DNA of 64,000 nt from Mycobacteriales bacterium (GCA_035540755.1 DATLGD010000164.1:12-64011); one strand, 5' to 3'; counted from the stretch's first letter, positions 11,641 to 63,140 are shown. Notes: generated from the letters alone by a model not told the origin. A program made the numbers and translations.

Positions 11641-11973
11641 CCGTCCAGTGTGCCTGCTCCCGCGCTCGCCGCCCGCTGCAGACGGCTCGGCGAGGGCGGC
11701 GCCTGAAGGATGGCGCGGGGACAGGCGACCGGAGCCCTTCGGACCGACCCCGCGACGGATGGGTCCCGTCGCGCTGCCGTTGTCTACTGGACGCGGTCAC
11801 CTGTCCCGGCGCGCCACCTCGTTCAGGGAAGCGGTGCTCCGACGACCTCGCGGCGGCTCCGGTCCTGTCGCTGGCCTGCCGGTCCGGCGGAGGATGTCCG
11901 CCGGGCCGTCTCGCCAGGTCCGGAGCAGTGCGTCGACCGGGTCAGGTGGCCGTTCGTCGGTGGGACCGGCGCG

Positions 11974-39108: not shown

Positions 39109-40595
39109 GGACCGCGCGGCTCGACGCCCGGCAGCGCCTCGCCCGGCGCTTCGCCGCGACGATGTCGCTGGCGATGATCGGCTCGAACACCATCGGCGCC
39201 GCAGTCGTGTTCACCTACCTGACCTTCGTCGTGCCCGACCGGCCCACCGACAGCCCGACCGCGACCCTGGTGAACACGATCGTCGCGGCCGCCTACCTGC
39301 TCCTCGCGCTCGTCGTGGGCACCATCGGCAGCTTCCTGCTGCAGCGCCGCCTGCTCCGCTGGCTGCGGCCGGGGCACGTCATCGGCCCGGAGGACCGCCG
39401 GACGACGCTGCGCCTGCCGGCCCGCCTCGTGCGCTTCTACGGCGCGCTGTGGGCGGTCGCCGTCGTCGTCTTCGCGGTGCTGAACCTGCCCCGGTCGCTC
39501 GCCGGAGGGCTCGACGTCGTCGCGACCATCGCCGCGGGCGGCGCGACGACCTGCGCGCTGTGCTACCTGCTGGCCGAGCGCATCGTCCGGCCGCTGGTCG
39601 CGGAGGTGATGGGCGACGGCTCCGACCCGCCGCCGGTCGTGCTCGGTGTGCGCCGCCGCGTGCTGCTCTCCTGGGCCCTCGGCACCGGGATCCCGCTGCT
39701 CGGCATCGCCCTGGCGGTGGTGCCCGACGGCCGTGAGGAGCCGGTCGGTGCCCTGCCGGTGCTGTTCCTGTGCGGGGTGGGCCTGGCCGTCGGACTGCTC
39801 GCGATGGACGTCGCCGCCCGCTCGGTCAGCGAGCCGGTGCAGACGATGACCGGCGCCCTCCGTGCGGTCGGCGAGGGCCGCCTCGACAGCGCCGTCCCGG
39901 TGGACGACGTGAGCGAGCTCGGGCAGCTGCAGGCCGGCTTCAACGCGATGGTGGCGGGGCTGCGCGAGCGCGAGCAGCTGCGCGACCTGTTCGGGCGCCA
40001 GGTCGGCACCGCGGCTGCCCGGCTCTCGCTCGAGCAGGGCGTGCAGCTCGGCGGCGAGCGCCGGGACGTCGCCGTGCTGTTCGTCGACGTCGTCGGGTCG
40101 ACGTCGCTGGCGGTCGAGGCGGAGCCGGAGGAGGTGGTGCGGCGGCTGAACGAGTTCTTCGCCGTCGTGGTCGACGTCGTGACCGCCCACCACGGCTGGG
40201 TGAACAAGTTCGAGGGCGACGCCGCGCTCTGCGTCTTCGGCGCGCCCGAGCGGCGGACCGACGCCGCCGCCTGCGCACTCGCGTGCGCCCGGGTCATGGC
40301 CGGGCGGCTGTCACCGCTGCCGCTGGACGCGGCGATCGGCGTCAGTGCCGGGCCGGTGGTCGCCGGGCACATCGGCACCGAGGAGCGCTTCGAGTACACC
40401 GTCATCGGCGACCCGGTGAACGCCGCCGCCCGGCTCACCGACCTGGCCAAGAAGGAGCCGCGGCGGGTGCTCGCCGACGCCGCCGTCGTGGCCGCCGCCG
40501 GACCGGAGTCCGCCGAGTGGGAGGAGTGCGGGCAGGCCGTGCTGCGCGGCCGGGCGAGGCCGACCGGGCTCTCCCGGCCGAGGGCCGGCCGCTAG
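39105..40595 (+). CDS. Membrane-anchored HAMP-domain class III adenylate/guanylate cyclase
   Basis: 496 aa from GTG 39105, which overlaps the DUF3866 stop as GTGA. N-terminal TM segments and a HAMP-like linker (SELGQLQAGFNAMVAGL) precede the cyclase core (VAVLFVDVVGSTSLA, NKFEGDAALCVFGAP, YTVIGDPVNAAARL). Confidence 0.85.
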   Translation: MRTARLDARQRLARRFAATMSLAMIGSNTIGAAVVFTYLTFVVPDRPTDSPTATLVNTIVAAAYLLLALVVGTIGSFLLQRRLLRWLRPGHVIGPEDRRTTLRLPARLVRFYGALWAVAVVVFAVLNLPRSLAGGLDVVATIAAGGATTCALCYLLAERIVRPLVAEVMGDGSDPPPVVLGVRRRVLLSWALGTGIPLLGIALAVVPDGREEPVGALPVLFLCGVGLAVGLLAMDVAARSVSEPVQTMTGALRAVGEGRLDSAVPVDDVSELGQLQAGFNAMVAGLREREQLRDLFGRQVGTAAARLSLEQGVQLGGERRDVAVLFVDVVGSTSLAVEAEPEEVVRRLNEFFAVVVDVVTAHHGWVNKFEGDAALCVFGAPERRTDAAACALACARVMAGRLSPLPLDAAIGVSAGPVVAGHIGTEERFEYTVIGDPVNAAARLTDLAKKEPRRVLADAAVVAAAGPESAEWEECGQAVLRGRARPTGLSRPRAGR

Positions 40596-40972
40596 GAGAC
40601 GCCCAGCAGGTCGACGACGAACACCAGCGTCTCGTTCGGGGCGATCACACCGCCGGCGCCGCGGGCGCCGTAGCCCAGGTGCGGCGGGATCGTCAGGCGG
40701 CGGCGCCCGCCGACCTTCATCCCGGCCACGCCCTGGTCCCAGCCGCCGATGACCCGGCCGGCCCCGAGCGGGAACGAGAACGGCTCCCCGCGGTCCCAGG
40801 ACGCGTCGAACTGCCGCCCGGTCGACCAGGAGTGCCCGACGTAGTGCATGGTGCAGGTGGTGCCCGGCACGGCCTCCCTCCCGTCGCCGACGGCGAGGTC
40901 CTCCATCTGCAGCTCCTGCGGCGGCGGGCCGGAAGGGATCTCGACGGTCGGCTTGCTGATCGGGGCGCTCAT
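40592..40972 (-). CDS. FKBP-type peptidyl-prolyl cis-trans isomerase (cytosolic type)
   Basis: 126 aa: HYVGHSWSTGRQFDASWDRGEPFSFPLGAGRVIGGWDQGVAGMKVGGRRRLTIPPHLGYG. It shares a CTAG stop overlap with the convergent cyclase gene. Confidence 0.88.
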   Translation of the reverse strand: MSAPISKPTVEIPSGPPPQELQMEDLAVGDGREAVPGTTCTMHYVGHSWSTGRQFDASWDRGEPFSFPLGAGRVIGGWDQGVAGMKVGGRRRLTIPPHLGYGARGAGGVIAPNETLVFVVDLLGVS

Positions 40973-40985
40973 GGCGCCCACGCTG

Positions 40986-42344
40986 TCACATGGACGCGAT
41001 GAGCTTGTCGACGCGGTCGTCGACGGAGCGGAACGGGTCCTTGCAGAGCACGGTGCGCTGCGCCTGGTCGTTGAGCTTGAGGTGCACCCAGTCGACGGTG
41101 AAGTCGCGCCGCTTGTCCTGGGCGTGCCGGATGAACTCACCGCGCAGCCGCGCCCGGGTGGTCTGCGGCGGCACCGACTTGGCCTCGAAGACCGCCAGGT
41201 CGGTGGTTGCCCGCGCGACCGCGCCCTTCTTCTCCAGCAGGTAGTACAGGCCCCGGTCCCGGTGCACGTCGTGGTAGGCGAGGTCGAGCTGGGCCACCCG
41301 CGGCGACGAGAGCGGCAGGTCGTGCTTGGCCCGGTAGCGCTCGATCAGCTGGTACTTGGTCACCCAGTCGATCTCGCGGTCGACCAGCGACAGGTCTCCG
41401 GTGTCGACCGCCTGCAGCGTGCGGCCCCACAGGTCGAGGACGCGGTCGACGGTGGCGTCGGACCCGCGCCGGGCGATGAAGTCGACCGCCTTGCCGTAGT
41501 ACTCCCGCTGGATCTCGAGGGCGCTGGCCTCCCGCCCGTTGACCAGCTTGACCTTGCGCCGGCCGGTGATGTCGTGGCTGATCTCGCGGATCGCCCGGAT
41601 CGGGTTCTCCAGGGTGAGGTCGCGCATGACGACCCCGGCCTCGATCATCCGCAGCACCAGGTCGGCGGTGCCCACCTTGAGCAGCGTCGTGACCTCGTTC
41701 ATGTTGCTGTCGCCGACGATGACGTGCAGCCGGCGGAACCGCTCGGCGTCGGCGTGCGGCTCGTCCCTGGTGTTGATGATCGGGCGCGAGCGGGTAGTCG
41801 CCGACGACACGCCCTCCCAGATGTGCTCGGCCCGCTGGCTCACGCAGTAGACGGCGCCGCGCGGCGTCTGCAGCACCTTGCCCGCGCCGGCGATGATCTG
41901 GCGCGACACCAGGAACGGGATGAGGACGTCCGCGAGCCGGCTGAACTCCCCGTGCCGCCCCACGAGGTAGTTCTCGTGGCAGCCGTAGGAGTTGCCGGCC
42001 GAGTCGGTGTTGTTCTTGAACAGGTAGATGTCGCCGGCGATGCCCTCCTCGCGCAGCCGCCGCTCGGCGTCCACGAGCAGGCCCTCGAGGATGCGCTCGC
42101 CGGCCTTGTCGTGCGTGACCAGGTCGACGGCGTCGTCGCACTCGGGCGTCGCGTACTCGGGATGGGAGCCGACGTCGAGGTACAGGCGGGCGCCGTTGCG
42201 CAGGAAGACGTTCGAGCTCCGGCCCCAGCTGACCACCCGGCGGAACAGGTAGCGCGCCACCTCGTCCGGCGAGAGCCGCCGCTGCCCGCGGAAGGTGCAG
42301 GTGACGCCGTACTCGTTCTCGATCCCGAAGATCCGACGCTCGAT
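40986..42344 (-). CDS. pafA: Pup--protein ligase PafA (non-canonical ATC start inferred)
   Basis: Colinear with the remembered Mtb PafA throughout: [16 protein letters not shown]...[48 protein letters not shown] ... [21 protein letters not shown]. The track ORF starts only at GTG 42260, but the conserved N-terminus continues in frame up to a TGA at 42351-42353. An ATC at 42344-42342 aligns with Met1 and gives 452 aa. Confidence 0.88.
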
Positions 42345-42432
42345 CTTGGCTCAGCTCCTGAATCACGTCGCGAACAGCTGCTCGTCCTCATCCTGACACG
42401 CTGTGGCGCCTTCAGGGCGGCTCCGTACTCCG

Positions 42433-43032
42433 TCAGCGGATCGGGGTGAGCAGGCGGAAGTAGATCGCCGAGCGCACCGTGCCGCCGAGGTTGAGCGTTC
42501 CGGTGTGACCGAGCTGCGGGTGCATGACCAGCGCGTCACCGGCCTCCAGCGGCACCGGCACAGGCTCGGTGTGCTCACCGCGGTGCGAGCGCGGCCACAC
42601 CCAGGCCACCCCGTCGTCAGGTCCCGCGGTGGTCAGCGCGACCCCGACGACGCCGCGGTAGCGCTTGTCCTGCGCCCACGGCGGAAGGGCGTCGACGTGC
42701 GGCTCGAGCGGCCAGTCCTGCGCCTCGTCGGGGAAGCGCAGCAGGATCTGCGGCTCGGCCCAGTCGTCGCCCTCCTGCCAGCCGAGCAGCTCGGCGGCCG
42801 GATCCGGCAGCACGCCCCACACCTCGGGTTCCCAGCGCAGGTGGGGGAAGAAGGTTCCTGGCTGCCACGCGCGGATCTGCTCGGCTGTCAGGCCCTGCCT
42901 GCGGATCTCGAGGTTCAGCAGCCGCAGCGCGGCGGCCACCCGGGAGGCAGAGACCACCTCGCGCAGGACGGTGTAGCCCTCCTGCTCCAGGTCGGTGCGG
43001 GCGGCCTGCAGAGCGGGGGCCGAGGTCGTCAC
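42433..43032 (-). CDS. Small Fe(II)/2-oxoglutarate dioxygenase-like protein (PhyH-type HxD...H)
   Basis: 199 aa from GTG 43032 with EGYTVLREVV, WPLEPHVDALPPW (HxD) and LVMHPQLGHTG. This is short for a PhyH protein. It is the last gene of the glycosyltransferase operon. Confidence 0.55.
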   Translation of the reverse strand: MTTSAPALQAARTDLEQEGYTVLREVVSASRVAAALRLLNLEIRRQGLTAEQIRAWQPGTFFPHLRWEPEVWGVLPDPAAELLGWQEGDDWAEPQILLRFPDEAQDWPLEPHVDALPPWAQDKRYRGVVGVALTTAGPDDGVAWVWPRSHRGEHTEPVPVPLEAGDALVMHPQLGHTGTLNLGGTVRSAIYFRLLTPIR

Positions 43033-43070
43033 GGGAGCGCTCCTTCGCGGCGGGGCTGTCCGCGTCGAAC

Positions 43071-44162
43071 CTAGCGACCGGCCGCGCGCACCTCGGCGAC
43101 GTGCGCCTCGAGCTCGTCGGCGCGGTGCTCGGCCGTGTGCTCGGCCAGCACCCTCCTGCGAGCCGCCTCCCCGATCCGTGCGCGCCGGTCGTCGTCGACC
43201 GCCCGCAGGTGCTCGACGACGTCTGCCGCCGACCGCGCGACGAGGATCTCCTCCCCCGGGGTGAAGAAGGCGTCCAGGCCCGCCCACACGTCCGAGACGA
43301 CGGGCACACCGCACGCCGCGGCCTCGAACAGGCGCACGCTGGGCGACCAGCCGGCGCGGACCATGTCGGCGCGGGTGACGTTCAGGGTCAGCCGCTGGGC
43401 GCTGTAGAAGCCGACGTGCTCGGCCGGCGGCAGGTGCTCGATGCGCTGCACGTTGGCCGGCCACGGGACGTCCGCCGGGTACTGCGGCCCGGCGACCACG
43501 AAACGCTCCTCCGGCAGGGCGCGGGCCGGGGCCGCGAGCAGCTCGTCCAGCACCGGCTGGCGGTCGGCGCTCCACGTGCCGAGGTAGCCCAGGGTCCAGT
43601 GCCGCTCGACCTCGACGGGGGCGTACGCGCTCTCGTCGACCAGGCAGTGGAAGGCCCGCGCCCGGGGCGAGCCGAGCGCCTGCTCGAGATGGTCGAGGGT
43701 CGGCCCGCCGGTGAACGACAGGTAGAGGTCGTAGCCCGGCACGAGCTCCGGGACGAGGTACTCGCACTCCCCCCGCCCGAGCGCCGCCAGCGTGACGGGA
43801 GTGTCGATGTCGTAGAAGGCGGTGACGCCGGTGGCGGTCTCCTGCACCCACCGCCCGACGTCCACCCCCTGCGGGACGTACGAGCCGACGACCACGAGGT
43901 CGGCGTCGCGCACGGCCGCGGCGTGCTCGTCGCGCAGCTGCTCCATCGAGGCGTACAGGGCGGTGCGGCCCCAGGGCGGCTCCGGCAGATCGCGGTGCTC
44001 GGCGTACCAGGGGACGTCGCGCTCGAGGAACAGCACGTCGTGCCCGCGCCCGTCCAGCGCCCGGACCAGGGCCCGGAAGTTCGTGGCGTGCCCGTTGCCC
44101 CACGAGGAGGTGATGGACAGCCCGAGGACGACGATGCACAGCCCCTCGGCGGACGGCCTCAT
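43071..44162 (-). CDS. CgeB-like / DUF3880-type glycosyltransferase, paralog 1
   Basis: 363 aa. N-terminal SSWGNGHATNFRALVRALDGRGHDV and C-terminal GT1-like region NVTRADMVRAGWSPSVRLFEAAACGVPVVSDVWAGLDAFFTPGEEILVA. A 4-nt overlap joins it to paralog 2. Confidence 0.72.
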   Translation of the reverse strand: MRPSAEGLCIVVLGLSITSSWGNGHATNFRALVRALDGRGHDVLFLERDVPWYAEHRDLPEPPWGRTALYASMEQLRDEHAAAVRDADLVVVGSYVPQGVDVGRWVQETATGVTAFYDIDTPVTLAALGRGECEYLVPELVPGYDLYLSFTGGPTLDHLEQALGSPRARAFHCLVDESAYAPVEVERHWTLGYLGTWSADRQPVLDELLAAPARALPEERFVVAGPQYPADVPWPANVQRIEHLPPAEHVGFYSAQRLTLNVTRADMVRAGWSPSVRLFEAAACGVPVVSDVWAGLDAFFTPGEEILVARSAADVVEHLRAVDDDRRARIGEAARRRVLAEHTAEHRADELEAHVAEVRAAGR

Positions 44163-45229
44163 CGCACCCGCTCGCGCAGGATCTCGTCGACCTGCACCGC
44201 CCGGTGCCCGTAGGTGTGCTCGGAGAGCACCCGCTCCAGCGCCGCCTTGCCGAGCAGCCGCGCCCGCTCGGGATCGAGGTCGCGCAGGTGATCGGCGACC
44301 TGCCGGCCGTCGTAGGCCACGAGCACCTCGCGGTCCGGCACGAGGAAGTCCTCGATACCCTGCCAGCCGTCGGTGATCTGGCAGGCCGCGGCCCCGGCGA
44401 CCTCGAAGACGCGGGTGGCGGGTGACCACCCGTTGGCGACCATGCTGTCGCGGGTGACGTTCGAGACCGCGAGCGGCGTGGAGTTGAACGCGTTGTGGTC
44501 GGCGGTGCCGACGTGACCGAGCAGGCGCACGTTCGGCGGCACCGGCTTGTCGCCCCAGCCGTTGCCGGCCAGCAGGAACGTGCGGTCCGGCAGCAGCGAG
44601 GCCGGCCGCAGGAAGAACTCCTCGACGCGCGCCTCGCGGTCCGGCAGCCGGTTCGCGAGCAGGGCCAGGTCGACGTCGAAGCGCGGGTCGGGGTCGGCCG
44701 GGTGGTGCGTCGTCGGGTCGAGCGCGTTGTAGACGACGATGCACTCGCGGGCGCCGAGAGCGGTGTAGCGCTGCACCACCGGGTCGCCGCCGCCGTAGGT
44801 CAGCACCAGGTCGTACGACGGCAGCAGGGCCCGGAAGGAGTCCGCCGGGTCGTCCTCCATCCGCGACAGCGTCGCGGGCGCGTCGACGTCCCAGAAGGCG
44901 GTGCAGGTGCCGAGCGAGAGCACGGCGTCCTCGAGCACGTCGTCGAAGACCCCGACGCCGCTGGTCTTCACGACCAGGTCGGCGCCGCGCGCCCGCTCCA
45001 CCGTCGCCCGCACCGCGGCCTCGTCCGGCGCCTCGTAGATGACGACCGTCGCCCAGTCCGGGTCGGGGATGTCGCGGTGCTCCTGCCGCTCGTAGGCGAC
45101 CGGCTCGTAGAACGTGACGCGGTGGCCGAGCTCGTGCAGGCCGCGGATGATGCCGCGGTAGTAGGTGCACGAGCCGTTCCACCACGAGGAGACCAGGCTC
45201 GATCCGAAGAAGGCGATGTCCAGGCTCAT
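44159..45229 (-). CDS. CgeB-like / DUF3880-type glycosyltransferase, paralog 2
   Basis: 356 aa with SSWWNGSCTYYRGIIRGLHELGHRV and NVTRDSMVANGWSPATRVFEVAGAAACQITDGWQGIEDFLVPDREVLVA. It has 4-nt overlaps on both sides. Confidence 0.72.
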   Translation of the reverse strand: MSLDIAFFGSSLVSSWWNGSCTYYRGIIRGLHELGHRVTFYEPVAYERQEHRDIPDPDWATVVIYEAPDEAAVRATVERARGADLVVKTSGVGVFDDVLEDAVLSLGTCTAFWDVDAPATLSRMEDDPADSFRALLPSYDLVLTYGGGDPVVQRYTALGARECIVVYNALDPTTHHPADPDPRFDVDLALLANRLPDREARVEEFFLRPASLLPDRTFLLAGNGWGDKPVPPNVRLLGHVGTADHNAFNSTPLAVSNVTRDSMVANGWSPATRVFEVAGAAACQITDGWQGIEDFLVPDREVLVAYDGRQVADHLRDLDPERARLLGKAALERVLSEHTYGHRAVQVDEILRERVR

Positions 45230-46344
45230 GCGGTGCTCCCTGCGGTCGGGACGGTGTGCAGGCCGAGCTCGGCCACGACCGCCAGCAGCTCGTCGACGCG
45301 GTGCGCGCAGGTGTGCCGCGCGCCGATGGTGCGCAGGCCGCTCTCCCGCAGCGACTGCGCCAGGTCCGGGTCGTGCAGGACGTCGCGCAGGTGCGCCTCC
45401 ATCTGCGCGCCGTCCGTCGCGACGAGGTAGTCGCTGCCGGGCGTGAACAGGCCCTCCGCGTCGTCCCACGGGGCGGTGACCAGCGGGATGCCGCAGGCCA
45501 GCGCCTCGAACGGCCGGATGGTCGGGATGCCCGGCAGCGCCTCGACGTACGGCCGCCGCGGCACGTGCACGGTGACGCCGTGCGCGGCGAAGGCCCGCGG
45601 GGCGAGGTGGTTGGCGATCCACCCGCCGTAGCGGATGCCCGCCTCCCTCAGCGCCTGCTTCGCGCCAACCGGGTAGCGCACCCCGTGCACCGTCGCCCGC
45701 AGCCCGAGCCGGTGCACCGGGGCGAGCAGGAACTCGTGCAGCTCGGCCGTGCGCTCGCCGTCGCCCCAGTTGCCGATCCAGACCAGGTCTCCCTCGCGCT
45801 GCACTCCGTCGACGGGGGTGAAGACGCGGGCGTCGGCGGCCTCGTGCCACGTCCAGGCGCGCCCGGTCCAGCCGCGGTCGAGGTAGATCCGCCGGATCAC
45901 CTCGCCGAAGGCGAGCACGCCGTCGTACTGCGAGAGGTCGTAGGCCGCCATGTCCTCAGGTGCGGTGGCAGCCCGGTGGTGGGTGTCGTGGAAGAGCAGC
46001 CGGTAGCCGCCCGCGGCCTTGTGCGCGCCGACCGCGGCGACCAGCGACGGCTCGTTCCACTCGTGCACCAGGACGAGGTCGGCGCCCTCGGTCATGGCGG
46101 GCACGTCGGGCTCGAGCGGGTCGTAGACCCGGCTGCGCAGCCGCGGGAACGCCCGGAGCACGTCGTCGACGGCGCCGCGGCCCTGGTCGACGACGAGGTT
46201 CGCGCGGCTCCAGGCGTCCAGCGGCTCGTGGACCCGGACGTCGTGGCCGCGGTCGAGCAGGTCGCGAACGACGCCACGCAGGAAGTGCGCGTTGCCGTGG
46301 TTCCAGTCGCTGACCAGCGAGTGGCAGAACACGACGATCCTCAT
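45226..46344 (-). CDS. CgeB-like / DUF3880-type glycosyltransferase, paralog 3 (more divergent)
   Basis: 372 aa with SDWNHGNAHFLRGVVRDLLDRGHDV and HVPRRPYVEALPGIPTIRPFEALACGIPLVTAPWDDAEGLFTPGSDYLVA. It has 4-nt overlaps on both sides. Confidence 0.72.
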   Translation of the reverse strand: MRIVVFCHSLVSDWNHGNAHFLRGVVRDLLDRGHDVRVHEPLDAWSRANLVVDQGRGAVDDVLRAFPRLRSRVYDPLEPDVPAMTEGADLVLVHEWNEPSLVAAVGAHKAAGGYRLLFHDTHHRAATAPEDMAAYDLSQYDGVLAFGEVIRRIYLDRGWTGRAWTWHEAADARVFTPVDGVQREGDLVWIGNWGDGERTAELHEFLLAPVHRLGLRATVHGVRYPVGAKQALREAGIRYGGWIANHLAPRAFAAHGVTVHVPRRPYVEALPGIPTIRPFEALACGIPLVTAPWDDAEGLFTPGSDYLVATDGAQMEAHLRDVLHDPDLAQSLRESGLRTIGARHTCAHRVDELLAVVAELGLHTVPTAGSTA

Positions 46345-47369
46345 CGCGCACCCACCGGCAGAGCGGCATAGGCGGCGAGGTAGCCGGCGGCGGTCCGCTC
46401 CGGGGTGTAGGTCAGCGCCCGGGCCCGGGCAGCGGCACCTCGCGACGGGTCCTGCAGCGCCTCCTCCAGCGCGTCCACGAGCGAGGCGTCGTCGTGCACG
46501 TAGGTGGCGGCCTCGCCCCACACCTCGCGCAGGCTCGGGAGGTCCCCCAGCACCAGCGCGCAGCCGGCGAGAGCGGCCTCGAGGATGCCGAGCCCGAACG
46601 GCTCGTAGCGCGCCGGGGCGGCGTAGACCGCTGCCCGGGCCAGGAGCGCAGCCAGCGCCGGGAAGGCTAAGGGGCCGAGCACGTCGACACCGGGCAGGTC
46701 GCCCGGTCCCTCCCCGGCCACCCGCACCGGTGCGGACAGCGACGGCGCGACGCGGCAGAGCGCGTCCACACCCTTGGCGTCGTCCCAGGTCCGGCCGGCG
46801 GCCAGCACGAGCGGCTCCTTGTCGGCCGGCGCGAGGAGCTCCCCCCGGCGGCAGTTCGGGACGACGGTCGCGCCCTCGAAGCCGTACGAGGCGCGCAGGT
46901 CGGCCGCGACGGCGGCCGTCGGCGCGACGACCCGCCCGGCGGCGCGCAGCCCCGCGGCCACCGCCGCCCGGTAGACGTCCCACTCGGCCGGCGCCTCAGT
47001 GCCCCGCACGGCGCGGAACCAGGAGACGACGTCGGAGTGCGCGACGACCAGCGGGCGCGTGCGCCAGGCCAGGGCGGCGTGCACGTAGCCGTTGAGGTGC
47101 ACGACGTCGGGCTGCAGCTCCTGCTCCAGCGAGAGCAGCCAGCCGCCGGCCTGCTCGACGCCCGGCCACGGGTCGTGCTGCCACTCGAGCGGGAAGGTCG
47201 AGACGTGCACCGAGGCGAAGGCGCCGGCCTCCTCCGCCTGCGCCGGCGACAGGCCGCGCCCCATGGTCGCCAGGTGCACCTCCACCCCGCAGGGGCGCAG
47301 TGCGTGCGCGAGCTCGACCGCGTAGGTCCAGACGCCGCCGACGGTGTCGGCCGTCATGAGCACCCTCAC
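46341..47369 (-). CDS. GT4-family (GT-B, retaining-type) glycosyltransferase
   Basis: About 342 aa: MTADTVGGVWTYAVELA and the E-x7-E region YEPFGLGILEAALAGCALVLGD. A GTG start at 47369 gives a GTGA overlap; the ATG at 47357 is the alternative start. Confidence 0.8.
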   Translation of the reverse strand: MRVLMTADTVGGVWTYAVELAHALRPCGVEVHLATMGRGLSPAQAEEAGAFASVHVSTFPLEWQHDPWPGVEQAGGWLLSLEQELQPDVVHLNGYVHAALAWRTRPLVVAHSDVVSWFRAVRGTEAPAEWDVYRAAVAAGLRAAGRVVAPTAAVAADLRASYGFEGATVVPNCRRGELLAPADKEPLVLAAGRTWDDAKGVDALCRVAPSLSAPVRVAGEGPGDLPGVDVLGPLAFPALAALLARAAVYAAPARYEPFGLGILEAALAGCALVLGDLPSLREVWGEAATYVHDDASLVDALEEALQDPSRGAAARARALTYTPERTAAGYLAAYAALPVGAR

Positions 47370-49272: not shown

Positions 49273-49280
49273 GACCGCGC

Positions 49281-51433: not shown

Positions 51434-51554
51434 GCGTTCTCTCTTCGCTCGGCGAACGGCTGATCCTCAGATCTGGTCCATCTCCGGACAACCTAAACGA
51501 GATGCTGCTGATGCTGCTGACGTCGATCCGCGGCGCGTCGGCCATAGTGTGCCG

Positions 51555-52511: not shown

Positions 52512-52527
52512 GCCGGCCGGCCGGTGC

Positions 52528-53910: not shown

Positions 53911-54023
53911 GGGATCTCTTCCACGTCAGGGCGCGTCCGGAGGCGGACGGCTCTCGGTGCGGCTCTGCGGGAGCCGGTCTGTCTCTGCAGGTCTCGACCA
54001 GGTCCGGCCGGCCCTGTAGGCCG

Positions 54024-56216: not shown

Positions 56217-56293
56217 CTGTGGTCCTCCGGTCGTGCGGACCGCAGGGGGTCCGGTTTGCGTCGGGCGGCACGTGGCCGCCGGGGGGTGGGCCG

Positions 56294-58426
56294 CTAGCCC
56301 AGGCGCTGCCAGCCGCTCCACGTGGAGCCGATGCGCACGGTGCGCCAGACGGCCTCGTCGGCACCGACCGCGGTGACCTCGACCCGGCCGGTGCCGGGGA
56401 CGGCGGTGACGGACGGGGCGCTGAGCAGCTTGCCGCCCAGGCTCCGCCACGTGCCGACGCCGGTCGCGCTCACGTCACGCACCCAGATGGCGCTGTCGGT
56501 GCCGCGGGCGGCGACCAGGACGTTGTCCGCCGAGGGCGACGCCGCCGAGACGTCGTCGAGCGTGCGCCCGCCGATCGCCTGCCAGGCGGACCAGCCCCTG
56601 GCCGCGGTCCAGGCCCGCCGGTGCAGCTGCCCGTCCAGGCCGACGACGACGACCTCGTAGCGCCCGGCGGGCGTCCACGTCGACGCGGGGCCCGTGCCGA
56701 CGAGCATGAGGCCCCCGAGCCGCTCCCAGCTGGACCACTGACCCGCCTTGTGCGAGAACCGGTAGGCCGCCGCGCCGTCGGTCTGGCGGACGAGCACGTT
56801 GAGGCTGCTGCCGCTCGCGGCGACCGACGGCCGCGACGTGACGCTGCCGCCGAGCGACGACCACCCGACCCAGCTGCTCGTGCCGGCCAGCTGTCCGTTG
56901 ACCCAGAGCTGGTCGTCGGTGCCGCGAGCGAAGACGTTGAGCACCGAGGTGCCGCGCCAGGCGGCCGTGGGGGCGCCGACCACGACGCCGCCGAGGGCGG
57001 TGGCGGGGCGCAGGGCGCCGTTCTCGATCCGACGGTGGGTCGCGGCGCCGGTCGACGAGCGCTGCACGAGATCGGTGCTCCCGGTGCTGCGCGCGGCCGT
57101 GGTGAGCGGACCCCAGCTCGGCCCGACGGCGGGAGCCGGAGCCGGCGCAGGGGCGGGTGCCGGAGCGGGTGCCGGAGAAGGCGACGGAGAAGGCGACGGT
57201 GAAGGCGCCGGCGCTGTGCTGCCGCCCTGCTGCGCCTCCCAGGCCTTCGTCCGCATGGCGGGCAGCGTGGCCATCCCGTTGTTGCCCGGGCAGTCGGTGG
57301 TGCTGACGTCCCGGTGGCCGTGGACGCGCGGCAGGGTCACGACCGTGCCCTTCTTGTAGCGGGTGCTGCCGCCGGAGGTCATCTGCACGGTGCTGCGGGG
57401 GTCCCGGCCGTACAGGCCCAGCTTCCAGCCGACCAGCTTGGCCACGGTGTCCTGCATGGCCGCGGGCGGCGTCACGCTGCTGTAGGTGCCGATCATCGAG
57501 ATGCCGACCGTGTTGGTGTTGAAGCCGCCGGCGTGCGCACCGATGACGGGCCGCTCCACGCCGCCGTGGCGGCCCTCCCAGGCGGTGCCGAACTTGTCGA
57601 CCAGGACGTTGTAGCCGATGTCGGACCACCCCAGGCTGTTGACGTGGTAGGCGTAGAAGCCGCGGATGATCCCCGGCACGTCGCTCGCCGTGTAGGAGTT
57701 CGAGCTGGCGGTGTGGTGGATGGTCGCCGCGCTGAGGGTCGAGGAGTAGGACGGGCTGCCCTTGCGGATCGACTCGTCGGCGCCCCACTGCGCACGGGTG
57801 CGGATCGCGGGCCTCGCGGCGGCGGCGTGAGCGGTCGACGCCGGGGCGCCGGTGCGCACGACCGCCGCGTCGGCCGGTGACTCGCCCGGGTCGATGAGCT
57901 CGAGCCGCACCTTGCGGGGAGCGGCTCCGGACACGACGTCGACCCGCGCCTGCACGCCGTCGGCCTCGCCGACCCACAGCGGAGAGGTGCCGGCGCGGCC
58001 GGTGGCCGCGTCGAGGTGCTGCAGGTCGGGCTCCTCGTCGGCGAGGCCGCCGATGTCCTCCCAGTCCGACCAGGTGCCGTCCGTGCGGGTGCGGACGAAC
58101 GCCTCGACCTCACCCACCTCCGGGCCGTGCTCCCAGGTGACGCCGACCATCTCGAACGGCTGCGTGCTGCGCTCTGCGGTGAGGGCGAGCGTGCGCCGGC
58201 TCCGGCCGGCGGCGGCGAGGTCGCTGCGCCGGGCAACGGCGGGCGCCCCGACCTCGGGCACCGCCGGTGCGCTCGCGGCGGCCACCGGCTCCACGGCGTC
58301 GAGGGCGACCGTGACGACCTCCGGCGCCACCGGCCGCGGGGCCGGCTCCGGTCGGTCGACCACCGGGAGCGCCAGCAGGACCGGGGTCAGGACGGACAGC
58401 AGGGCCAGGTCACGGGGCTTGCGCAC
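56294..58426 (-). CDS. Secreted N-acetylmuramoyl-L-alanine amidase (Amidase_2/PGRP type) fused to a C-terminal Trp-rich beta-propeller repeat domain
   Basis: 710 aa from GTG 58426, with GGAG 8 nt upstream. After the signal/TM segment comes the amidase core: RAQWGADES, ATIHHTAS, FYAYHVNSLGWSDIGYNVLVDKFG..WEGR, GAHAGGFNTNTVGISMIG. A (PS)n(PA)n linker follows, then repeats WVGWSSLGG, WSSWERLGG, WSAWQAIGG, WRSLGG, ending in WSGWQRLG. Confidence 0.8.
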   Translation of the reverse strand: MRKPRDLALLSVLTPVLLALPVVDRPEPAPRPVAPEVVTVALDAVEPVAAASAPAVPEVGAPAVARRSDLAAAGRSRRTLALTAERSTQPFEMVGVTWEHGPEVGEVEAFVRTRTDGTWSDWEDIGGLADEEPDLQHLDAATGRAGTSPLWVGEADGVQARVDVVSGAAPRKVRLELIDPGESPADAAVVRTGAPASTAHAAAARPAIRTRAQWGADESIRKGSPSYSSTLSAATIHHTASSNSYTASDVPGIIRGFYAYHVNSLGWSDIGYNVLVDKFGTAWEGRHGGVERPVIGAHAGGFNTNTVGISMIGTYSSVTPPAAMQDTVAKLVGWKLGLYGRDPRSTVQMTSGGSTRYKKGTVVTLPRVHGHRDVSTTDCPGNNGMATLPAMRTKAWEAQQGGSTAPAPSPSPSPSPSPAPAPAPAPAPAPAPAVGPSWGPLTTAARSTGSTDLVQRSSTGAATHRRIENGALRPATALGGVVVGAPTAAWRGTSVLNVFARGTDDQLWVNGQLAGTSSWVGWSSLGGSVTSRPSVAASGSSLNVLVRQTDGAAAYRFSHKAGQWSSWERLGGLMLVGTGPASTWTPAGRYEVVVVGLDGQLHRRAWTAARGWSAWQAIGGRTLDDVSAASPSADNVLVAARGTDSAIWVRDVSATGVGTWRSLGGKLLSAPSVTAVPGTGRVEVTAVGADEAVWRTVRIGSTWSGWQRLG
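57128..57210 (-). repeat. Low-complexity dinucleotide-codon repeat encoding a (Pro-Ser)n(Pro-Ala)n linker
   Basis: The region encodes APSPSPSPSPSPAPAPAPAPAPAPAPA, between the amidase domain and the propeller domain. Confidence 0.85.
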
Positions 58427-58754
58427 GCGAGGAGCTCCAAACGTCTCACCGGCGACACGGCACTGGACCGGGCGGCCTTCCGGGCCGCCGCGTCCGCGTC
58501 GACGAGGTCTTCCTGCTGTTCGACCGGTTCCCCCGCAGGCTTGACCCCGCAAGGAGCGCCGCTTGTCACAGCAGCCACAGGAGTCTCACCGGGATCGGAG
58601 CCGTTGACCAGGGGTTCGGGCCGCTTTTCCCGCTTCGGCCCGCCGACCGGTCACGTTCAGTAGCAGGTCGATGACAGTCACGCTCAAGGAAGTGACGCAG
58701 AGCGACGAGAGAACGGGGGTGCCCCTCTCTGCCAGCCGCCTGGAAGGTTCGACG

Positions 58755-60116
58755 ATGACAGACCGACGGAGCTCCCGTCCTCCGGACCGCCCGACGCCCA
58801 CGCAGCGACTGCTCGCCGTCGTCCTCGCGATCGTCGCCTCCCTGGCCGCCTTCGCGGTCGCCGCGTCACCGGCGTCGGCGGCGTCGGCCGACCCCGGCGC
58901 CGAGCTCGACATGCTCACCTCGCTGAACGCCGAGCGCAGCTCCCGCGGCCTGCACACCCTCCGCGCCACCGTCGACCTCGTCGACGTCGCCCGCCGGCAC
59001 GCCGGCTGGATGGCCGACAACGGCTCGCTCCAGCACAACGGCCGGCTGGCCACGGACGTGGCGGGCTGGACGATGCTGTCGGAGAACGTCGGCTACAGCG
59101 GCAACCCGACGACCCTGCACAACGCGCTCATGAACAGCACCGGCCACCGGGCCAACATCCTCGACGGCCGTCCCACCCAGGTCGGCGTCGGCGCGGCGCG
59201 CGACTCCCGCGGCGTCCTGTGGGTCACCCAGGTGTTCCGCCGTCCGGATGCCTCGACGGTCAACGCCCCCACCGCCGTGCTCGGCCTCGGTGCCGCCGGG
59301 ACGCCCGATGTGGCAGTGGCCTCGGTCGGCACCCTGTACACCGCCGAGCGCGGCTCCGACGGCACCACCGGCGTGCGCCTGATGACCGACTCCGGGTTCT
59401 CCGGCGGCGCGACGCCGCTGGGCGGAGCCAGCCTGGAGTCGCCGGCGATCGACGCCACACCGAAGGGGCAGATCAGCGTCGTCGCCCGCGGCACCGACAG
59501 GGCGCTGTGGCTGCGCAGCAAGGCCGACTCCGGGTCGGGCTGGCAGCCCTGGCTGCGGCTCGGCGGGAGCGGCACCTCCCGCCCTGCGGTGGCGTCGTGG
59601 GCCCAGGGCCGGCTCGACGTCGTCGTGCGCGGTGGCGACGGTGCCCTGTGGCACCGCAGCCAGACCTCCCCCGGCTCCTGGACCGGCTGGATGCCGCTCG
59701 GCGGCGCCATCGCCGAGGGGGCCGACGCCGACATCGTGTCGACCGGCTTCGGCAAGCTGACGGTCGCCGTGCAGGGCCGCGACTCCCAGATCTGGGCGCG
59801 CAGCTTCTCGCTCGGCTCCGGCTGGACCCCGTGGACGCCGCTGCGCGGGCACTCCAAGGGCGGCCCGACGCTGTCGTCCCCCGGCAGCGGCCGCGTCGTC
59901 GTCGCGATGAAGGGACTGGACGACGCCGGCTGGACGATGAACCTCGACGGCGGCCGGCTCGGGAGCTGGAACCGCCTGGGCGGTGTGCTGAAGACCGCAC
60001 CGACCTCCGCCGGCAGCGGCGGCCGCGTGGACGTGGTGACCGTCGGCACCGACGGCCTGCTCTACCGCGTCACGCAGGTCGACGGCCGCTGGTCCTCCTG
60101 GCGCCGCGTCAGCTGA
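58755..60116 (+). CDS. Secreted CAP/SCP (PR-1-like) domain protein fused to a C-terminal Trp-rich beta-propeller repeat domain
   Basis: 453 aa from the ATG at 58755; the track ORF starts at 58671. Signal peptide LLAVVLAIVASLAAFAVAASPASA. CAP domain: LNAERSSRGLHTL.....ARRHAGWMA..GSLQHN....NVGY......LHNALMNSTGHRANIL....QVGVG......LWVTQVF. Repeats include WQPWLRLGG, WTGWMPLGG, WTPWTPLRG, WNRLGG and end in WSSWRRVS. Confidence 0.75.
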   Translation: MTDRRSSRPPDRPTPTQRLLAVVLAIVASLAAFAVAASPASAASADPGAELDMLTSLNAERSSRGLHTLRATVDLVDVARRHAGWMADNGSLQHNGRLATDVAGWTMLSENVGYSGNPTTLHNALMNSTGHRANILDGRPTQVGVGAARDSRGVLWVTQVFRRPDASTVNAPTAVLGLGAAGTPDVAVASVGTLYTAERGSDGTTGVRLMTDSGFSGGATPLGGASLESPAIDATPKGQISVVARGTDRALWLRSKADSGSGWQPWLRLGGSGTSRPAVASWAQGRLDVVVRGGDGALWHRSQTSPGSWTGWMPLGGAIAEGADADIVSTGFGKLTVAVQGRDSQIWARSFSLGSGWTPWTPLRGHSKGGPTLSSPGSGRVVVAMKGLDDAGWTMNLDGGRLGSWNRLGGVLKTAPTSAGSGGRVDVVTVGTDGLLYRVTQVDGRWSSWRRVS

Positions 60117-60126
60117 CCTCGGCTGG

Positions 60127-62439
60127 CTACGCCTCCACGGCGGCCGGTCCCTCGGGGGCCGGCCGCCGTCGGCGTCCGCGGGGCCGGGCGGTCGACAGCG
60201 GCACCAGCACCGAACCGACCCCGAGTGCCACCAGCGAGGCGCCGGCCAGCACGGTGAGTCGCAGCACGCGGGGCGATCGATACGTCAGCTCGAGCCGGCC
60301 GGCGTCCCCGGGAGCGACGTCGACCGCGACGAGCAGGTCCCCGTGCCGCTGCACCTCGACCGGCTCCCCGTCGAGGGTGGCGGAGTACCCGGGGAACCAG
60401 AGCCGCGCGAACACCAGGCGGCCCTCCTCCGTCCCGCCCCGGACGTCCACGCACTCGTGGTTCGGACCGGCGCCGCACTCCTGTTCGGTGACCGCCGCCA
60501 CCGCCGTGCCGGGGGACACGTAGGACAGCAGGCCCGGCAGGTCGTAGGTCGGTCCGCGGTAGGTGGCGGTCCACTCCCCCTCGGACGTCCGGGTCCAGGG
60601 TGCACCGAGGACGTCCTCGAGCTCGTCGGCGCGGTCGCCGAGCAGCGCGATGACCTGGTCCACGCGGAGCAGCTCGAGCCAGGTCACGCCGGTCGCGGGG
60701 TCGAAGGCGGCGAAGCGCGCCGCTCCGCCGGCGCGGAAGTTGCCCTGGTCGTCCATCGGGAAGCGGTCCCGGAAGAAGCGGTTGCCCAGCGGGCTGTAGC
60801 CGTTGACCTGCCGGGTGCCGGCCATCAGGCCGGTCGAGGACGGGTGGTACTCCGCGTAGAACGAGCGCAGCTCCTCGGCGCTGGCGTCAGTGCGCGGATA
60901 GGTGCCGTAGAAGAGCGTGTAGTCCTCGAGGCTGAGCGGCTCGACGGTGCGCAGGTCGCTCGGGAAGCCGTAGTCGATGCCTCGCGGCTCAGGGTGCAGC
61001 ACCGCCAGCCAGCCCAGCAGCAGGACCGTGCCTGAGGCGATCACGGCGTCGGCGAGCGGGCCGCGCCAGCGGGCGGCGCGGGCATGCGATCGGCTCCCGA
61101 GCCACCAGGTCGCCGCGACGAGGGCGGCGAGCGCCAGGCACAGCGGCAGGATCCGGTCCCCGCCCAGCGGGTCGGCCTGCAGCGAGTTGAGCGTCAGCAG
61201 GGCCACCAGCCCGAGCAGCACCCCGAGCCTGCGGCGGGTGAAGGCGAAGCTGCCCCGGGCCACCAGGAGCGCCGCGGTCACCAGCAGGAAGAAGCCGAAG
61301 TACTGCAGGAAGCGGGTCGGGAAGCGGAACACGAGCACGCGCTCGGGACCGAGCGCTCCCAACGCGGCCAGGACCACGGCGGCGACCGCGGTCAGCAGCA
61401 GCGCCCGGGTGCGCGCCTCGAACGGCCCCCGTCGCCAGAGCACCAGCACCGGCAGCACGAACCAGGCGACGTAGAAGTGCGGCAGCTCCTGCCGGGCCAG
61501 CCCGCCGAAGTTGACGAACCAGCCCCAGTAGCTGGGGTCGGCGAAGTGCAGCAGGCCCTCCAGCGGCACCACGTTGAAGTTGGCGTTGTTGCGCATGCCG
61601 GCGCTGCGGGTGGCCAGCGCGAAGGACGCGACCAGGGGGTACAGGGCCACCAGCGACGCGATGACGCCGCCGGCGTACCAGGCGCCGAGCCATGCCGTGT
61701 CGCGGCGCGGCGCCCGCAGCGCCAGCCGCGCCAGCAGCAGCGTGGCCACGACGATGCCGAGGAACGGGATGGCCAGCGGCCACCCGCTCGTGCAGGCGCC
61801 GTAGGTGCCGAGCAGCACGGCCCAGCCGTACCGGCGGCGCGGCTGCTGGTGGAAGGCCATCGCCGCGGCGACGGCCACGACGAACCAGGTGAAGGACGTC
61901 ACCGCCTGGTACCAGCCCGCTCCCCACACCCACGTGTAGGGCTGGAAGCCCACCGACACGGCGAAGGCCACGGTCCAGCCCGCGGACAGCCCGAGCGTGC
62001 GGCCGAGCCAGGCCGCCGCCGCGGTGAGGACCACGGCGTGGACGAGGAAGTAGACGAACGAGCCGAACGCGACGTCGTCCACGCCGGCCAGGAACACGCT
62101 GAGCGCGACGTTGACCGGGTTGTAGATGGCGTTCTGGTACTCGATCGCGTGCCCGCTGCTCTCGACGAGGTCGGTGCTGAGCCACGGCCAGTGGCCCGAC
62201 CGGACGATGCGCCCGATGTCGATGAGCTTGGGGACGGCGTCGGCCTGCCGGTCGTCGACGAAGAAGAAGCGGGAGTTGCGCAGGTACAGCAGGGACACCA
62301 GGCCGGCCACCGCGAGCACCGACACGGCCCCCGACAGCGGGCCGCTCCAGGTGCGAGGGCGGGGGCGCTCCGCGACCGGCCAGGGGGCCCCCCGGACGTC
62401 CGGTGCGCTCAGGGTGTCCACCGGCGCGGCTGTGCGCAT
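60127..62439 (-). CDS. Large polytopic membrane protein with YfhO-like (GT-C glycosyltransferase-like) architecture
   Basis: 770 aa. About 12-14 TM segments fill the first ~480 aa, followed by a ~240-aa soluble (extracytoplasmic) domain and one C-terminal TM anchor (LAGASLVALGVGSVLVPL). A motif near the end, LWFPGYSATLDGEPV, resembles the YfhO C-terminal pattern. The call rests on architecture and is not verified. Confidence 0.55.
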   Translation of the reverse strand: MRTAAPVDTLSAPDVRGAPWPVAERPRPRTWSGPLSGAVSVLAVAGLVSLLYLRNSRFFFVDDRQADAVPKLIDIGRIVRSGHWPWLSTDLVESSGHAIEYQNAIYNPVNVALSVFLAGVDDVAFGSFVYFLVHAVVLTAAAAWLGRTLGLSAGWTVAFAVSVGFQPYTWVWGAGWYQAVTSFTWFVVAVAAAMAFHQQPRRRYGWAVLLGTYGACTSGWPLAIPFLGIVVATLLLARLALRAPRRDTAWLGAWYAGGVIASLVALYPLVASFALATRSAGMRNNANFNVVPLEGLLHFADPSYWGWFVNFGGLARQELPHFYVAWFVLPVLVLWRRGPFEARTRALLLTAVAAVVLAALGALGPERVLVFRFPTRFLQYFGFFLLVTAALLVARGSFAFTRRRLGVLLGLVALLTLNSLQADPLGGDRILPLCLALAALVAATWWLGSRSHARAARWRGPLADAVIASGTVLLLGWLAVLHPEPRGIDYGFPSDLRTVEPLSLEDYTLFYGTYPRTDASAEELRSFYAEYHPSSTGLMAGTRQVNGYSPLGNRFFRDRFPMDDQGNFRAGGAARFAAFDPATGVTWLELLRVDQVIALLGDRADELEDVLGAPWTRTSEGEWTATYRGPTYDLPGLLSYVSPGTAVAAVTEQECGAGPNHECVDVRGGTEEGRLVFARLWFPGYSATLDGEPVEVQRHGDLLVAVDVAPGDAGRLELTYRSPRVLRLTVLAGASLVALGVGSVLVPLSTARPRGRRRRPAPEGPAAVEA

Positions 62440-62570
62440 CGTTCCTTCACGTGTCGGCTCGGGCCTGGGCCGAGGACGGAACGCCCTCCGGCCGGTGCCG
62501 GCGGCGGCGCGCAGTGCGGCTCGCCGCTCCTGCCGGATCGGACCCTAGCCTGCGGCGCGGCCGTCGCGGA

Positions 62571-63140
62571 CTAGGACGCGGCCGCCGAGACGATGTCGAT
62601 GACGAAGACCAGGGTGCTGTTCGGCGGGATCGGTCCCTGACCCGTCGGTCCGTAGCCCAGCTCGCTCGGGATGACGATCTCCCGCCGTCCGCCCTCGCGC
62701 ATGCCGAGCACCCCCTGGTCGAAGCCGGGGATGAGGTTGCCGCCGCCGGCCTGGAACGGCAGCGTGCTCTCCGGCCCCCGCCGCCAGGAGGCGTCGAAGA
62801 CCTCCCCGGTCTCGTAGAAGGCGCCGACGTACCGGGCCTGGACCTGCACGCCCTCGACCACCTCGGCGCCCTCGCCGACGACGACGTCGCGGACCACCAG
62901 CCCGCAGGGCGGCAGCTCCTCGCTGGGCTCGACCACCGGCTGCACGGCCAGGTCGGTCGAGGTGCTCGGACGCGGCTCCTGCACCTCGGGCACGTCGTCG
63001 CACGGCGTCGCCGGCGCGGCGGCGGTCGGCGTGGCCTCGGTGGCCTGCACCGTCGGGTCGTCGCCGTCCCCGCCGCAGCCGGCGAGCAGGACGGCCGAGA
63101 CGAGGGCAGCGGCCGCCCAGCGGCCGGTGCGGGCGCTCAC
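62571..63140 (-). CDS. FKBP-type peptidyl-prolyl isomerase lipoprotein
   Basis: 189 aa with the lipobox AVLLAGCGG and an FKBP core ([58 protein letters not shown]). A 4-nt overlap joins it to prcA. Confidence 0.87.

Follow-up and report, generated by a model that had tools for sequence, protein, structure and literature searches.

The 64,000-nucleotide stretch DATLGD010000164.1:12-64011 from a Mycobacteriales bacterium (GCA_035540755.1), hereafter the window, carries 15 genes (42433-62439) between pafA, encoding the Pup ligase, and the FKBP2-prcA pair of the Pup-proteasome locus. This interval is probably a composite of two independently inherited modules that accumulated in the variable spacer between prcBA-FKBP2 and pafA, and not one three-stage pathway. 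Module 1 (42433-52511) consists of a nine-gene minus-strand operon (42433-51433, with 4-nt start/stop overlaps) and a divergent UDP-glucuronate decarboxylase (UXS) gene. Module 2 (52528-62439) consists of five genes encoding four exported-type propeller-fused proteins, A to D (52528-60116), and E, a 770-residue membrane protein of the glycosyltransferase GT-C fold. Genes were called from third-position GC and start/stop overlaps (the window is ~75% G+C) and annotated by Pfam, NCBIfam and PDB searches; gene calling and domain searches confirmed the count, content and order of the 15 genes given in an earlier note on this DNA. The same sequence is public as ENA metagenome contig ERZ27256763 k141_309188. 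The same note had proposed that cytoplasmic glycan synthesis, transfer by the GT-C protein and propeller-targeted wall hydrolysis form one functional unit. This was not borne out: the cassette of module 1 was found in 35 other loci lacking E and PLL-type propeller genes, and loci with E or PLL genes lacked the cassette. Only E and the PLL enzymes co-occur elsewhere (L091, L175), and the linkage of all sub-modules in other genomes that a single unit would predict broke down for the glycosyltransferase operon, which occurs independently of the rest.

The module 1 cassette at unrelated sites

The first operon gene, encoding a short-chain dehydrogenase/reductase (SDR; 50315-51433), was used as the query for a metagenome scan, which returned 80 loci with orthologues, 31 of them carrying at least five cassette genes in order. 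No match to the propeller genes, the GT-C gene, pafA, prcA, FKBP, tatC or helY was found in any of the 80, and 25 included at least 5 kb of flank on the module 2 side. Intact cassettes of the same order were also found in four genome or assembly loci at unrelated sites, namely between a beta-lactamase-fold gene and pyruvate carboxylase (L085/L086), between STAS/hemerythrin genes and putA (L087), and near ald, an integrase fragment and scpAB (L084), the last with a divergent UXS gene (85% orthologue) in the same position. The PhyH gene likewise follows the CgeB-like gene GT12a in L084 and L085, and UXS lies near the cassette in a further seven loci (L096, L106, L136, L141, L155, L162 and L174). 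Module 1 is therefore autonomous, keeping its gene order at unrelated sites without module 2 or Pup-locus genes. Its genes in the window are as follows, the operon being given in order of transcription.

51555-52511, plus strand: UDP-glucuronate decarboxylase (UXS), divergent; E-value 4.4e-109 to human UXS1
50315-51433, minus strand: extended SDR, nucleotide-sugar 4-epimerase-like, first operon gene; PDB 6wjb, MoeE5 (6kv9) and 4zrm, E-values 1e-40 to 1e-36
49281-50318, minus strand: extended SDR, closest to CDP-tyvelose 2-epimerase; PDB 9rl0, E-value 3.6e-78, and 1orr, 8.1e-77
48337-49272, minus strand: Zn-dependent alcohol dehydrogenase-like protein; ADH_zinc_N, E-value 4.1e-15
47366-48340, minus strand: GFO/IDH/MocA oxidoreductase; Pfam matches, with NCBIfam matches all far below cut-offs
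46341-47357, minus strand: GT4-family GT-B glycosyltransferase; Glyco_transf_4, E-value 3.7e-18, and Glyco_trans_1_4, 3.6e-14; 338 residues in the public call
45226-46344, minus strand: CgeB-like glycosyltransferase, paralogue c; Glyco_trans_1_2, E-value 1.4e-34
44159-45229, minus strand: CgeB-like glycosyltransferase, paralogue b; Glyco_trans_1_2, E-value 9e-35
43071-44162, minus strand: CgeB-like GT-B glycosyltransferase, paralogue a (GT12a); Glyco_trans_1_2, E-value 2.6e-44
42433-43032, minus strand: PhyH-like 2-oxoglutarate/Fe(II) oxygenase, 199 residues, last operon gene; PhyH, E-value 4.8e-9

UXS aligned over its full length (residues 1-307 of 315) to the human UXS1 structures 4gll and 2b69, with the next family at 1e-38. 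The three CgeB-like proteins, predicted glycosyltransferases, scored 151, 120 and 119.5 bits against the PF13524 cut-off of 25, and share 33-36% identity with one another. Across the cassette no gene reached the cut-off of any NCBIfam model, all matches lying far below; one CgeB-like transferase searched against the PDB had no close relative, and a literature search returned no characterized actinobacterial CgeB member. UXS, both SDRs, the Zn-dependent alcohol dehydrogenase, the GFO oxidoreductase and the PhyH-like oxygenase would make or tailor nucleotide sugars, which the GT4 and the three CgeB-like GT-B transferases would then assemble on an acceptor. The cassette is predicted to make a glycoconjugate, and nothing in its gene content indicates export from the cytoplasm. 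The product and its destination were left unassigned because no membrane protein, flippase, polymerase, exporter or priming transferase is encoded among the cassette genes.

Orthologues of GT12a fell into more than 120 clusters at 69-87% identity across many lineages. Some of ~70% identity or more were found in metagenome-assembled genomes of Kofleriaceae (Myxococcota) and Solirubrobacteraceae (Thermoleophilia) (P0038, P0104, P0105), implying either inter-phylum transfer of the cassette or binning errors. In the 583-residue protein P0033, a GT12a-type Glyco_trans_1_2 domain is fused to PhyH, and this Rosetta-stone fusion suggests that the small PhyH oxygenase may work directly with the GT12a-type transferase. 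The closest relative of the cassette (L084 2555-11655, GT12a 87%) lies in many frame-shifted pieces on a 928-kb contig, near a 74-residue phage-integrase fragment, and could reflect long-read assembly errors or a decaying copy. In variant cassettes (L138 10973-12373; L145 12681-14531) a B12-binding radical SAM gene replaces the pair of Zn-dependent alcohol dehydrogenase and GFO genes, and L138 also carries a fourth CgeB-like paralogue, an NTP-transferase and a methyltransferase. These variants suggest alternative tailoring chemistries on one scaffold.

Four predicted wall enzymes with a shared propeller

Module 2 begins 17 bp from the stop codon of UXS, and its propeller-bearing genes are as follows.

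52528-53910, minus strand: protein A, signal peptide, LAS/VldE-type metallo-endopeptidase and PLL-type propeller; precomputed PF26571 and PF26607
54024-56216, minus strand: protein B, signal peptide, SpoIID/LytB domain and PLL-type propeller; SpoIID, E-value 3.8e-20
56294-58426, minus strand: protein C, Rv3811_N-type N-terminus, Amidase_2 (MurNAc-L-Ala amidase), Pro/Ala linker and PLL-type propeller; Amidase_2, E-value 6e-15
58755-60116, plus strand: protein D, signal peptide, CAP/YkwD domain and PLL-type propeller; CAP, E-value 5.1e-12, YkwD, 5.8e-16, CV39L lectin, 1.6e-10

The signal-peptide-like N-termini of A, B and D and the charged-then-hydrophobic N-terminus of C were read by eye from the translations and not called by a predictor, and the start of C is uncertain (58426 to 58552). 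In protein A residues H91, D98, H168 and H170 are invariant, and protein B belongs to the SpoIID/LytB family (TIGR02669, 131.9 bits against a cut-off of 83.3).

The C-terminal propellers consist of tandem repeats of ~47 residues with W..W..LGG blades. A search of the Pfam library gave no propeller match even at an E-value of 10, and the family was identified through the PDB search and precomputed PF26607 (Beta-prop_PLL) annotation, the latter found for A, for B and for each of the four L091 orthologues. By sequence, the protein B propeller matched PDB 8q82 (phmmer E-value 5.1e-73) and seven other PLL/PHL chains. By structure, a model of protein A, with a predicted local distance difference test score (pLDDT) of 80, gave a Foldseek E-value of 5e-20 and a template-modelling score (TM) of ~0.62 on the target. 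That model has about six four-stranded blades (residues 194-460), a number taken from the structure model only since counting blades by regular expression was unreliable. The combination of VldE and PLL is rare (nine clusters), and PLL domains are also fused to many further lytic partners, M23, C39_2, polysaccharide deacetylase and M43 among them.

To our knowledge, PLL-type propellers are known biochemically only from Photorhabdus virulence lectins, and a literature search on DUF346/PF26607 found nothing relevant. SpoIID-type enzymes act on denuded strands, as established for the SpoIID/SpoIIP pair of sporulation. The enzyme set in the window would be complementary: the amidase would strip peptides, the SpoIID-type enzyme cut the denuded strands and the LAS endopeptidase cut cross-links. 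The shared propeller could dock all four enzymes on one glycan ligand, gathering these complementary peptidoglycan-cutting activities. Characterized PLL lectins bind L-fucose and O-methylated sugars (PMC12203525).

Protein E, a GT-C-fold membrane protein

The fifth gene of module 2 lies on the same strand as FKBP2, 131 bp downstream of it.

60127-62439, minus strand: protein E, polytopic GT-C-fold protein of 770 residues, distant YfhO branch; structure model and Foldseek

The model of E (pLDDT 84, predicted TM score 0.89) has ~13 helices and a beta-rich domain at residues 595-720. All confident Foldseek matches were GT-C enzymes (STT3, EmbB, DPY19, AftA, AftD and PglB), and the top 11 matches were all GT-C with probabilities of at least 0.99 but at E-values of ~1e-3 and TM scores of 0.39-0.45. 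The first transmembrane helix is followed by a conserved stretch, FFVDDRQ (family consensus YxDDRQ), in which D63 is invariant and D62 is present in at least 90% of members. A profile of the E family found no relative among all PDB chain sequences, including those of EmbB, AftA and AftD, and E was therefore placed by fold comparison alone. The label 'YfhO-like' used in the earlier note stands as far as the GT-C fold and the family are concerned, 8 of 26 homologues matching Pfam YfhO (best E-value 2.3e-9), although E itself falls below the Pfam threshold (PF09586, E-value 6.2, 5.5 bits against a cut-off of 28.5). A distant YfhO-like GT-C is thus a fair description of E. Like YfhO, or AftA and Emb on galactan, E would take a sugar from a polyprenyl-phosphate donor and add it, outside the membrane, to an exported wall polysaccharide.

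Three-component systems glycosylate Gram-positive wall polymers through a CsbB/GtrB GT2, a GtrA flippase and a YfhO GT-C protein (PMC5836110, PMC8035078). The window lacks such a system, as none of its Pfam-scanned genes, inside the block or outside it, encodes a GT2 polyprenyl-phosphate-sugar synthase or a GtrA-type flippase. Elsewhere in the window, rbpA (8091-8618) and lnt (10042-11796, minus strand) flank an open reading frame (ORF; 8718-9551, plus strand) that had no Pfam match in the frame chosen on that strand. In mycobacteria ppm1, encoding polyprenol-phosphate-mannose synthase, lies at this position. A ppm1-type enzyme at that position would be a possible donor source for the GT-C protein.

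Module 2 in other contigs

We scrutinized other contigs for module 2. All five genes recur on L091, a contig of another metagenome, as E-D-C-B-A with order and orientation unchanged (56-73% identity over aligned segments), and are followed by a GlfT2-type gene; the orthologue of C there has the Rv3811_N, Amidase_2 and Beta-prop_PLL domains and that of D is 60% identical. C, B and A are present in L092. L175/L176 encodes GT2-GlfT2-Wzm-Wzt-Glf-GlfT2-TylF-E, followed by a GSDH protein with a PLL propeller, two methyltransferases and another PLL fragment, and in L094 GlfT2-Wzm-Wzt-E lies beside an Rv3811_N-Amidase_2-LGFP gene. L093 has GT2 and methyltransferase genes, E and GtrA, with GlfT2 and TylF nearby, and in Geodermatophilus and Blastococcus, as in L093, GT2, methyltransferase and GtrA/EamA genes surround E in company with GlfT2 and TylF. 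Only in L090 does E stand alone among housekeeping genes. Overall, a PLL protein neighbored E in three of eight E-family contexts and GlfT2 in five of eight.

These contexts support module 2 as a coherent unit in which E and the propeller enzymes travel together. Of the links drawn in the earlier note, that between the GT-C protein and the lectin-hydrolases is upheld by synteny (L091, L175/L176, L094), while that to the glycosyltransferase operon is not, the partners of the E family being GlfT2, Glf, Wzm/Wzt, GT2, GtrA and methyltransferases. The acceptor of E is likely a GlfT2-type polysaccharide rather than teichoic acid. Given these neighbors (GlfT2, Glf, Wzm/Wzt and O-methyltransferases) and the sugar preferences of PLL lectins, the propeller most likely recognizes a decoration on a galactofuranan-type wall polysaccharide whose genes lie outside the window. 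A methylated or deoxy decoration is a reasonable guess, since TylF-type and other methyltransferases abound in E-family loci and PLL lectins prefer such sugars.

Orthologous Rv3811_N-Amidase_2 proteins beside E carry LGFP repeats in L094 (6800-8677) and a PLL propeller in the window (56294-58426). LGFP repeats are wall anchors characteristic of surface proteins in the Corynebacteriales, and the wall-binding module of the amidase swaps cleanly between PLL and LGFP. The propeller enzymes might alternatively be secreted weapons, in which the lectin would target surface glycans of competitors, such as the O-methylated glycolipids that other actinobacteria carry, for lysis by the catalytic domains. 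Together the enzymes address amide, peptide and glycan bonds in peptidoglycan, the N-termini of all four suggest export, and the rarity of VldE-PLL together with the joining of PLL to many other lytic domains would fit such a role, as would the binding of foreign glycans by characterized PLL/PHL lectins, including the disaccharide of Mycobacterium leprae phenolic glycolipid 1 (PGL-1) (PMC12203525). We nevertheless regard this as unlikely, because no immunity gene, toxin-delivery system or secretion apparatus was found among the Pfam-scanned genes nearby, the enzymes are repeatedly adjacent to genes for the cell's own wall polysaccharide (E, GlfT2), and the L094 amidase bears wall-anchor repeats in place of the propeller.

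The distribution of both modules also bears on a single pathway, in which a glycan made by the cassette in the cytoplasm would be transferred or decorated by E on the outer side of the membrane, and the product then recognized by the propeller hydrolases. The modules are contiguous, with 17 bp between the UXS and A stops and 13 of the 15 genes on the same strand; codon usage is uniform, all parts are glycan-related, and PLL lectins favor deoxy or methylated sugars, which are often products of SDR-rich cassettes. However, E, PLL proteins and wall hydrolases were found in none of the 35 other cassette loci (31 metagenome and 4 genome/assembly), within the sequenced flanks, and the cassette in no other E or PLL locus. 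The cassette also lacks a lipid-carrier priming enzyme, flippase or exporter to pass its product to the GT-C protein, and the partners of the E family elsewhere are GT2, GtrA, GlfT2 and Wzm/Wzt genes. A single pathway is thus very improbable.

A variable spacer in the Pup-proteasome locus

The backbone genes that border the 15-gene block are as follows.

40592-40972, minus strand: FKBP1, cytoplasmic FKBP-type peptidyl-prolyl isomerase, directly downstream of pafA; FKBP_C, E-value 2.8e-32
40986-42344, minus strand: pafA, Pup ligase; Pup_ligase, E-value 7.7e-168
62571-63140, minus strand: FKBP2, lipoprotein FKBP, downstream of prcA; FKBP_C, E-value 6.6e-23, lipobox LLAGC read from the sequence
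63137-63841, minus strand: prcA, proteasome alpha subunit; Proteasome, E-value 7.6e-13

On the pafA side the order is pafA-FKBP1-[HAMP cyclase and DUF3866 genes, opposite strand]-pafB-pafC-x-x-tatA-tatC-helY, where x denotes a small ORF; pafB/pafC (WYL, HTH_PafC), TatA and TatC were taken from precomputed annotation. With pafA, prcA, pafB/pafC, tatA/tatC and helY in conserved order, the window has a Pup-proteasome backbone, and the same order was found in at least 60 related loci.

For comparison, the 80 best PafA loci, one genome per species, were collected and all window proteins mapped onto them. In the 66 loci with prcA upstream of pafA (prcA orthologues 59-79% identical), the gap between the two genes is 177-8255 bp, with a median of 2.56 kb; in the window it is 20,792 bp. 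Not one of the 80 nearest PafA loci carries a block gene in this gap, in agreement with the view of the earlier note that the insertion here is specific to the lineage. Relatives with the most similar PafA (89-93% identity) retain the order prcA-FKBP2-gap-pafA-FKBP1, as L004, L040 and L002 show, with prcA-FKBP2 adjacency also in L004 and L040 and FKBP1 orthologues, 74-80% identical, after pafA in L001-L003. This assigns both FKBP genes to the backbone and puts the insertion point between FKBP2 and pafA. The two genes do bracket the block in position, as previously described, but as insertion borders they fail, being ancestral backbone in L004, L040 and L002. For the same reason the FKBP pair was rejected as the ends of an island.

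Spacer cargo differs among the closest relatives: L004 and L001 carry PAP2_3 and LPG_synthase_TM genes and L040 a DUF7507 gene. Since the nearest relatives hold different cargo there, the prcA-pafA spacer is a naturally variable site of lineage-specific cargo. A Phd/YefM antitoxin gene lies in the L001 spacer (2573-2980) and an integrase-family gene directly upstream of pafA in the L003 spacer (503-2308); both hint that the spacer may receive mobile DNA, though the window block is unmarked.

Consistent with the last point, the block bears none of the marks of a genomic island or integrative element. No tRNA gene lies anywhere in the 64 kb, and the Pfam scan of the block genes gave neither integrase nor transposase domains; flanking direct or inverted repeats are absent, the only repeats detected being those of the propeller blades. 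In GC, third-position GC (GC3) and codon usage the block genes lie within the range of the flank genes (block GC3 0.92-0.98; codon-usage score -0.57 to -0.75, against -0.57 to -0.79 in flank genes). Domain, tRNA, repeat and codon-usage analyses thus agree with the earlier report of no integrase, transposase, tRNA, direct repeat or GC shift. A decayed island, acquired in one horizontal transfer and since stripped of its mobility genes, would be in keeping with the integrase-family gene and Phd antitoxin in the L003 and L001 spacers, the phage-integrase fragment near the L084 cassette, and cassette orthologues of ~70% or more in Kofleriaceae and Solirubrobacteraceae, which imply horizontal spread. 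Against this, tRNA, integrase and transposase genes, flanking direct repeats and deviations in composition are all absent from the window, and the different distributions of the two modules elsewhere argue for at least two events, which leaves a single decayed island with little credibility beside the separate accumulation of two modules.

A scan for promoters and terminators found none in the 20 kb, and operon boundaries were therefore drawn from spacing. The convergent pairs D/E (60116-60127) and UXS/A (52511-52528) have stops 10 and 17 bp apart and no recognizable terminator. The pafA gene has an unusual start: on its minus strand (42332-42350) none of ATG, GTG or TTG occurs from the in-frame upstream TGA to the conserved RIFGIENEY motif. 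Seven relatives have GTG or ATG where the window has ATC (42344) as its apparent start codon, and the public gene call starts at GTG 42260, losing ~28 conserved residues. A frameshift or truncation was rejected, as the reading frame is intact and the start codon alone is unusual, so that either a non-canonical ATC start or a base error is present. Between FKBP1 and pafB, the DUF3866 and HAMP-adenylate cyclase genes (38014-40595, plus strand) separate pafA from pafBC, and a cyclase homologue (45%) occupies the same position in L005.

Weight of the composite reading and wider significance

Several points weigh against two independently inherited modules. Linkage was scored within ~10 kb of the anchors, and a functional link of modules 1 and 2 in trans may exist. 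The modules abut, with 17 bp between convergent stops, and both are glycan-related, so that chance juxtaposition is plausible rather than proven. UXS, a source of UDP-xylose, lies where the two modules join and might in principle contribute to either. The full five-gene module 2 was found in one other contig, and E is associated with PLL in three of eight E-family contexts. Enzyme activities and ligand in both modules are predictions. The set of loci compared contained no genus-level relative, its best PafA match being 93%.

Taking the two modules as separately inherited, we tentatively offer a wider reading that is possible, though somewhat less than even in our estimate as a whole: E and the PLL proteins of uncultured Actinomycetota would form a write-and-read address system for wall remodeling, and the cassette a separate, widespread and undescribed glycoconjugate pathway. 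In the write step, E would install a sugar mark, possibly O-methylated or deoxy, on a GlfT2-type wall polysaccharide. In the read step, the shared propeller would dock the amidase, the SpoIID-type enzyme, the L,D-endopeptidase and the CAP protein at these marks, so that complementary cuts coincide. The neighboring 10-gene cassette, with three CgeB-like transferases, would represent a widespread and strongly conserved glycoconjugate pathway that is nowhere described.

In soil actinobacteria, PLL propellers would then serve as an exchangeable targeting module for four or more classes of wall enzyme, with genetic ties to a GT-C/GlfT2 polysaccharide pathway, and the link between PLL and E offers a testable route to how high-GC Gram-positive bacteria address autolysins to secondary wall polymers. 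Conserved at 60-87% identity in many uncultured lineages, the 8-10-gene cassette with its three CgeB-like paralogues offers pathway discovery a well-defined target. Seen from the Pup-proteasome field the result is deflationary, the spacer being a cargo site with no sign of a proteasome function tied to glycan synthesis; the more interesting residue is the predicted PLL targeting of a conserved wall-enzyme set and the orphan, widespread CgeB-like cassette.

Comparison with known systems

The window propellers belong to the same repeat family as the Photorhabdus PLL/PHL lectins. Unlike those stand-alone secreted lectins of ~370 residues and seven blades, they are C-terminal modules of ~265 residues from an actinobacterium, modeled with about six blades and joined to domains active on peptidoglycan, and their sugar specificity is predicted. 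Protein E shares the GT-C fold with three-component systems, and its homologues in L088, L089 and L093 occur with GT2 and a small GtrA-/EamA-type membrane protein, whereas E in the window has no adjacent GT2 or flippase gene. Components of the mycobacterial arabinogalactan locus (GlfT2, Glf, Wzm/Wzt, GT-C and Rv3811_N-Amidase_2) cluster with E homologues in L094 and L175, and the arabinogalactan GT-C enzymes AftA, EmbB and AftD rank at the top of the structural matches to E together with other GT-C enzymes, with no detectable sequence similarity to it. Unlike that locus, the window encodes an amidase with PLL in place of LGFP and lacks GlfT2 and Glf genes.

Three cassette proteins match PF13524 (E-values 1e-34 to 3e-44), as do the CgeB spore-crust transferases of Bacillus subtilis, and GT12a orthologues carry the JGI annotation 'spore maturation protein CgeB'. 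However, the PF13524 match covers only the C-terminal 145 residues, the N-terminal 200 having no family assignment, and the cassette context (four oxidoreductases, GT4 and PhyH) is unrelated to that of the cge operon. With the M. tuberculosis-type Pup locus the window shares the backbone arc/dop/pup/prcBA ... pafA-pafBC-tatAC-helY. Unrelated genes likewise separate prcA (Rv2109c) from pafA (Rv2097c) in M. tuberculosis (PMC8223512). Compared with other variably spaced Pup loci, where the cargo is at most 8.3 kb across 66 loci, that of the window reaches 20.8 kb and consists of glycan and cell-wall genes.

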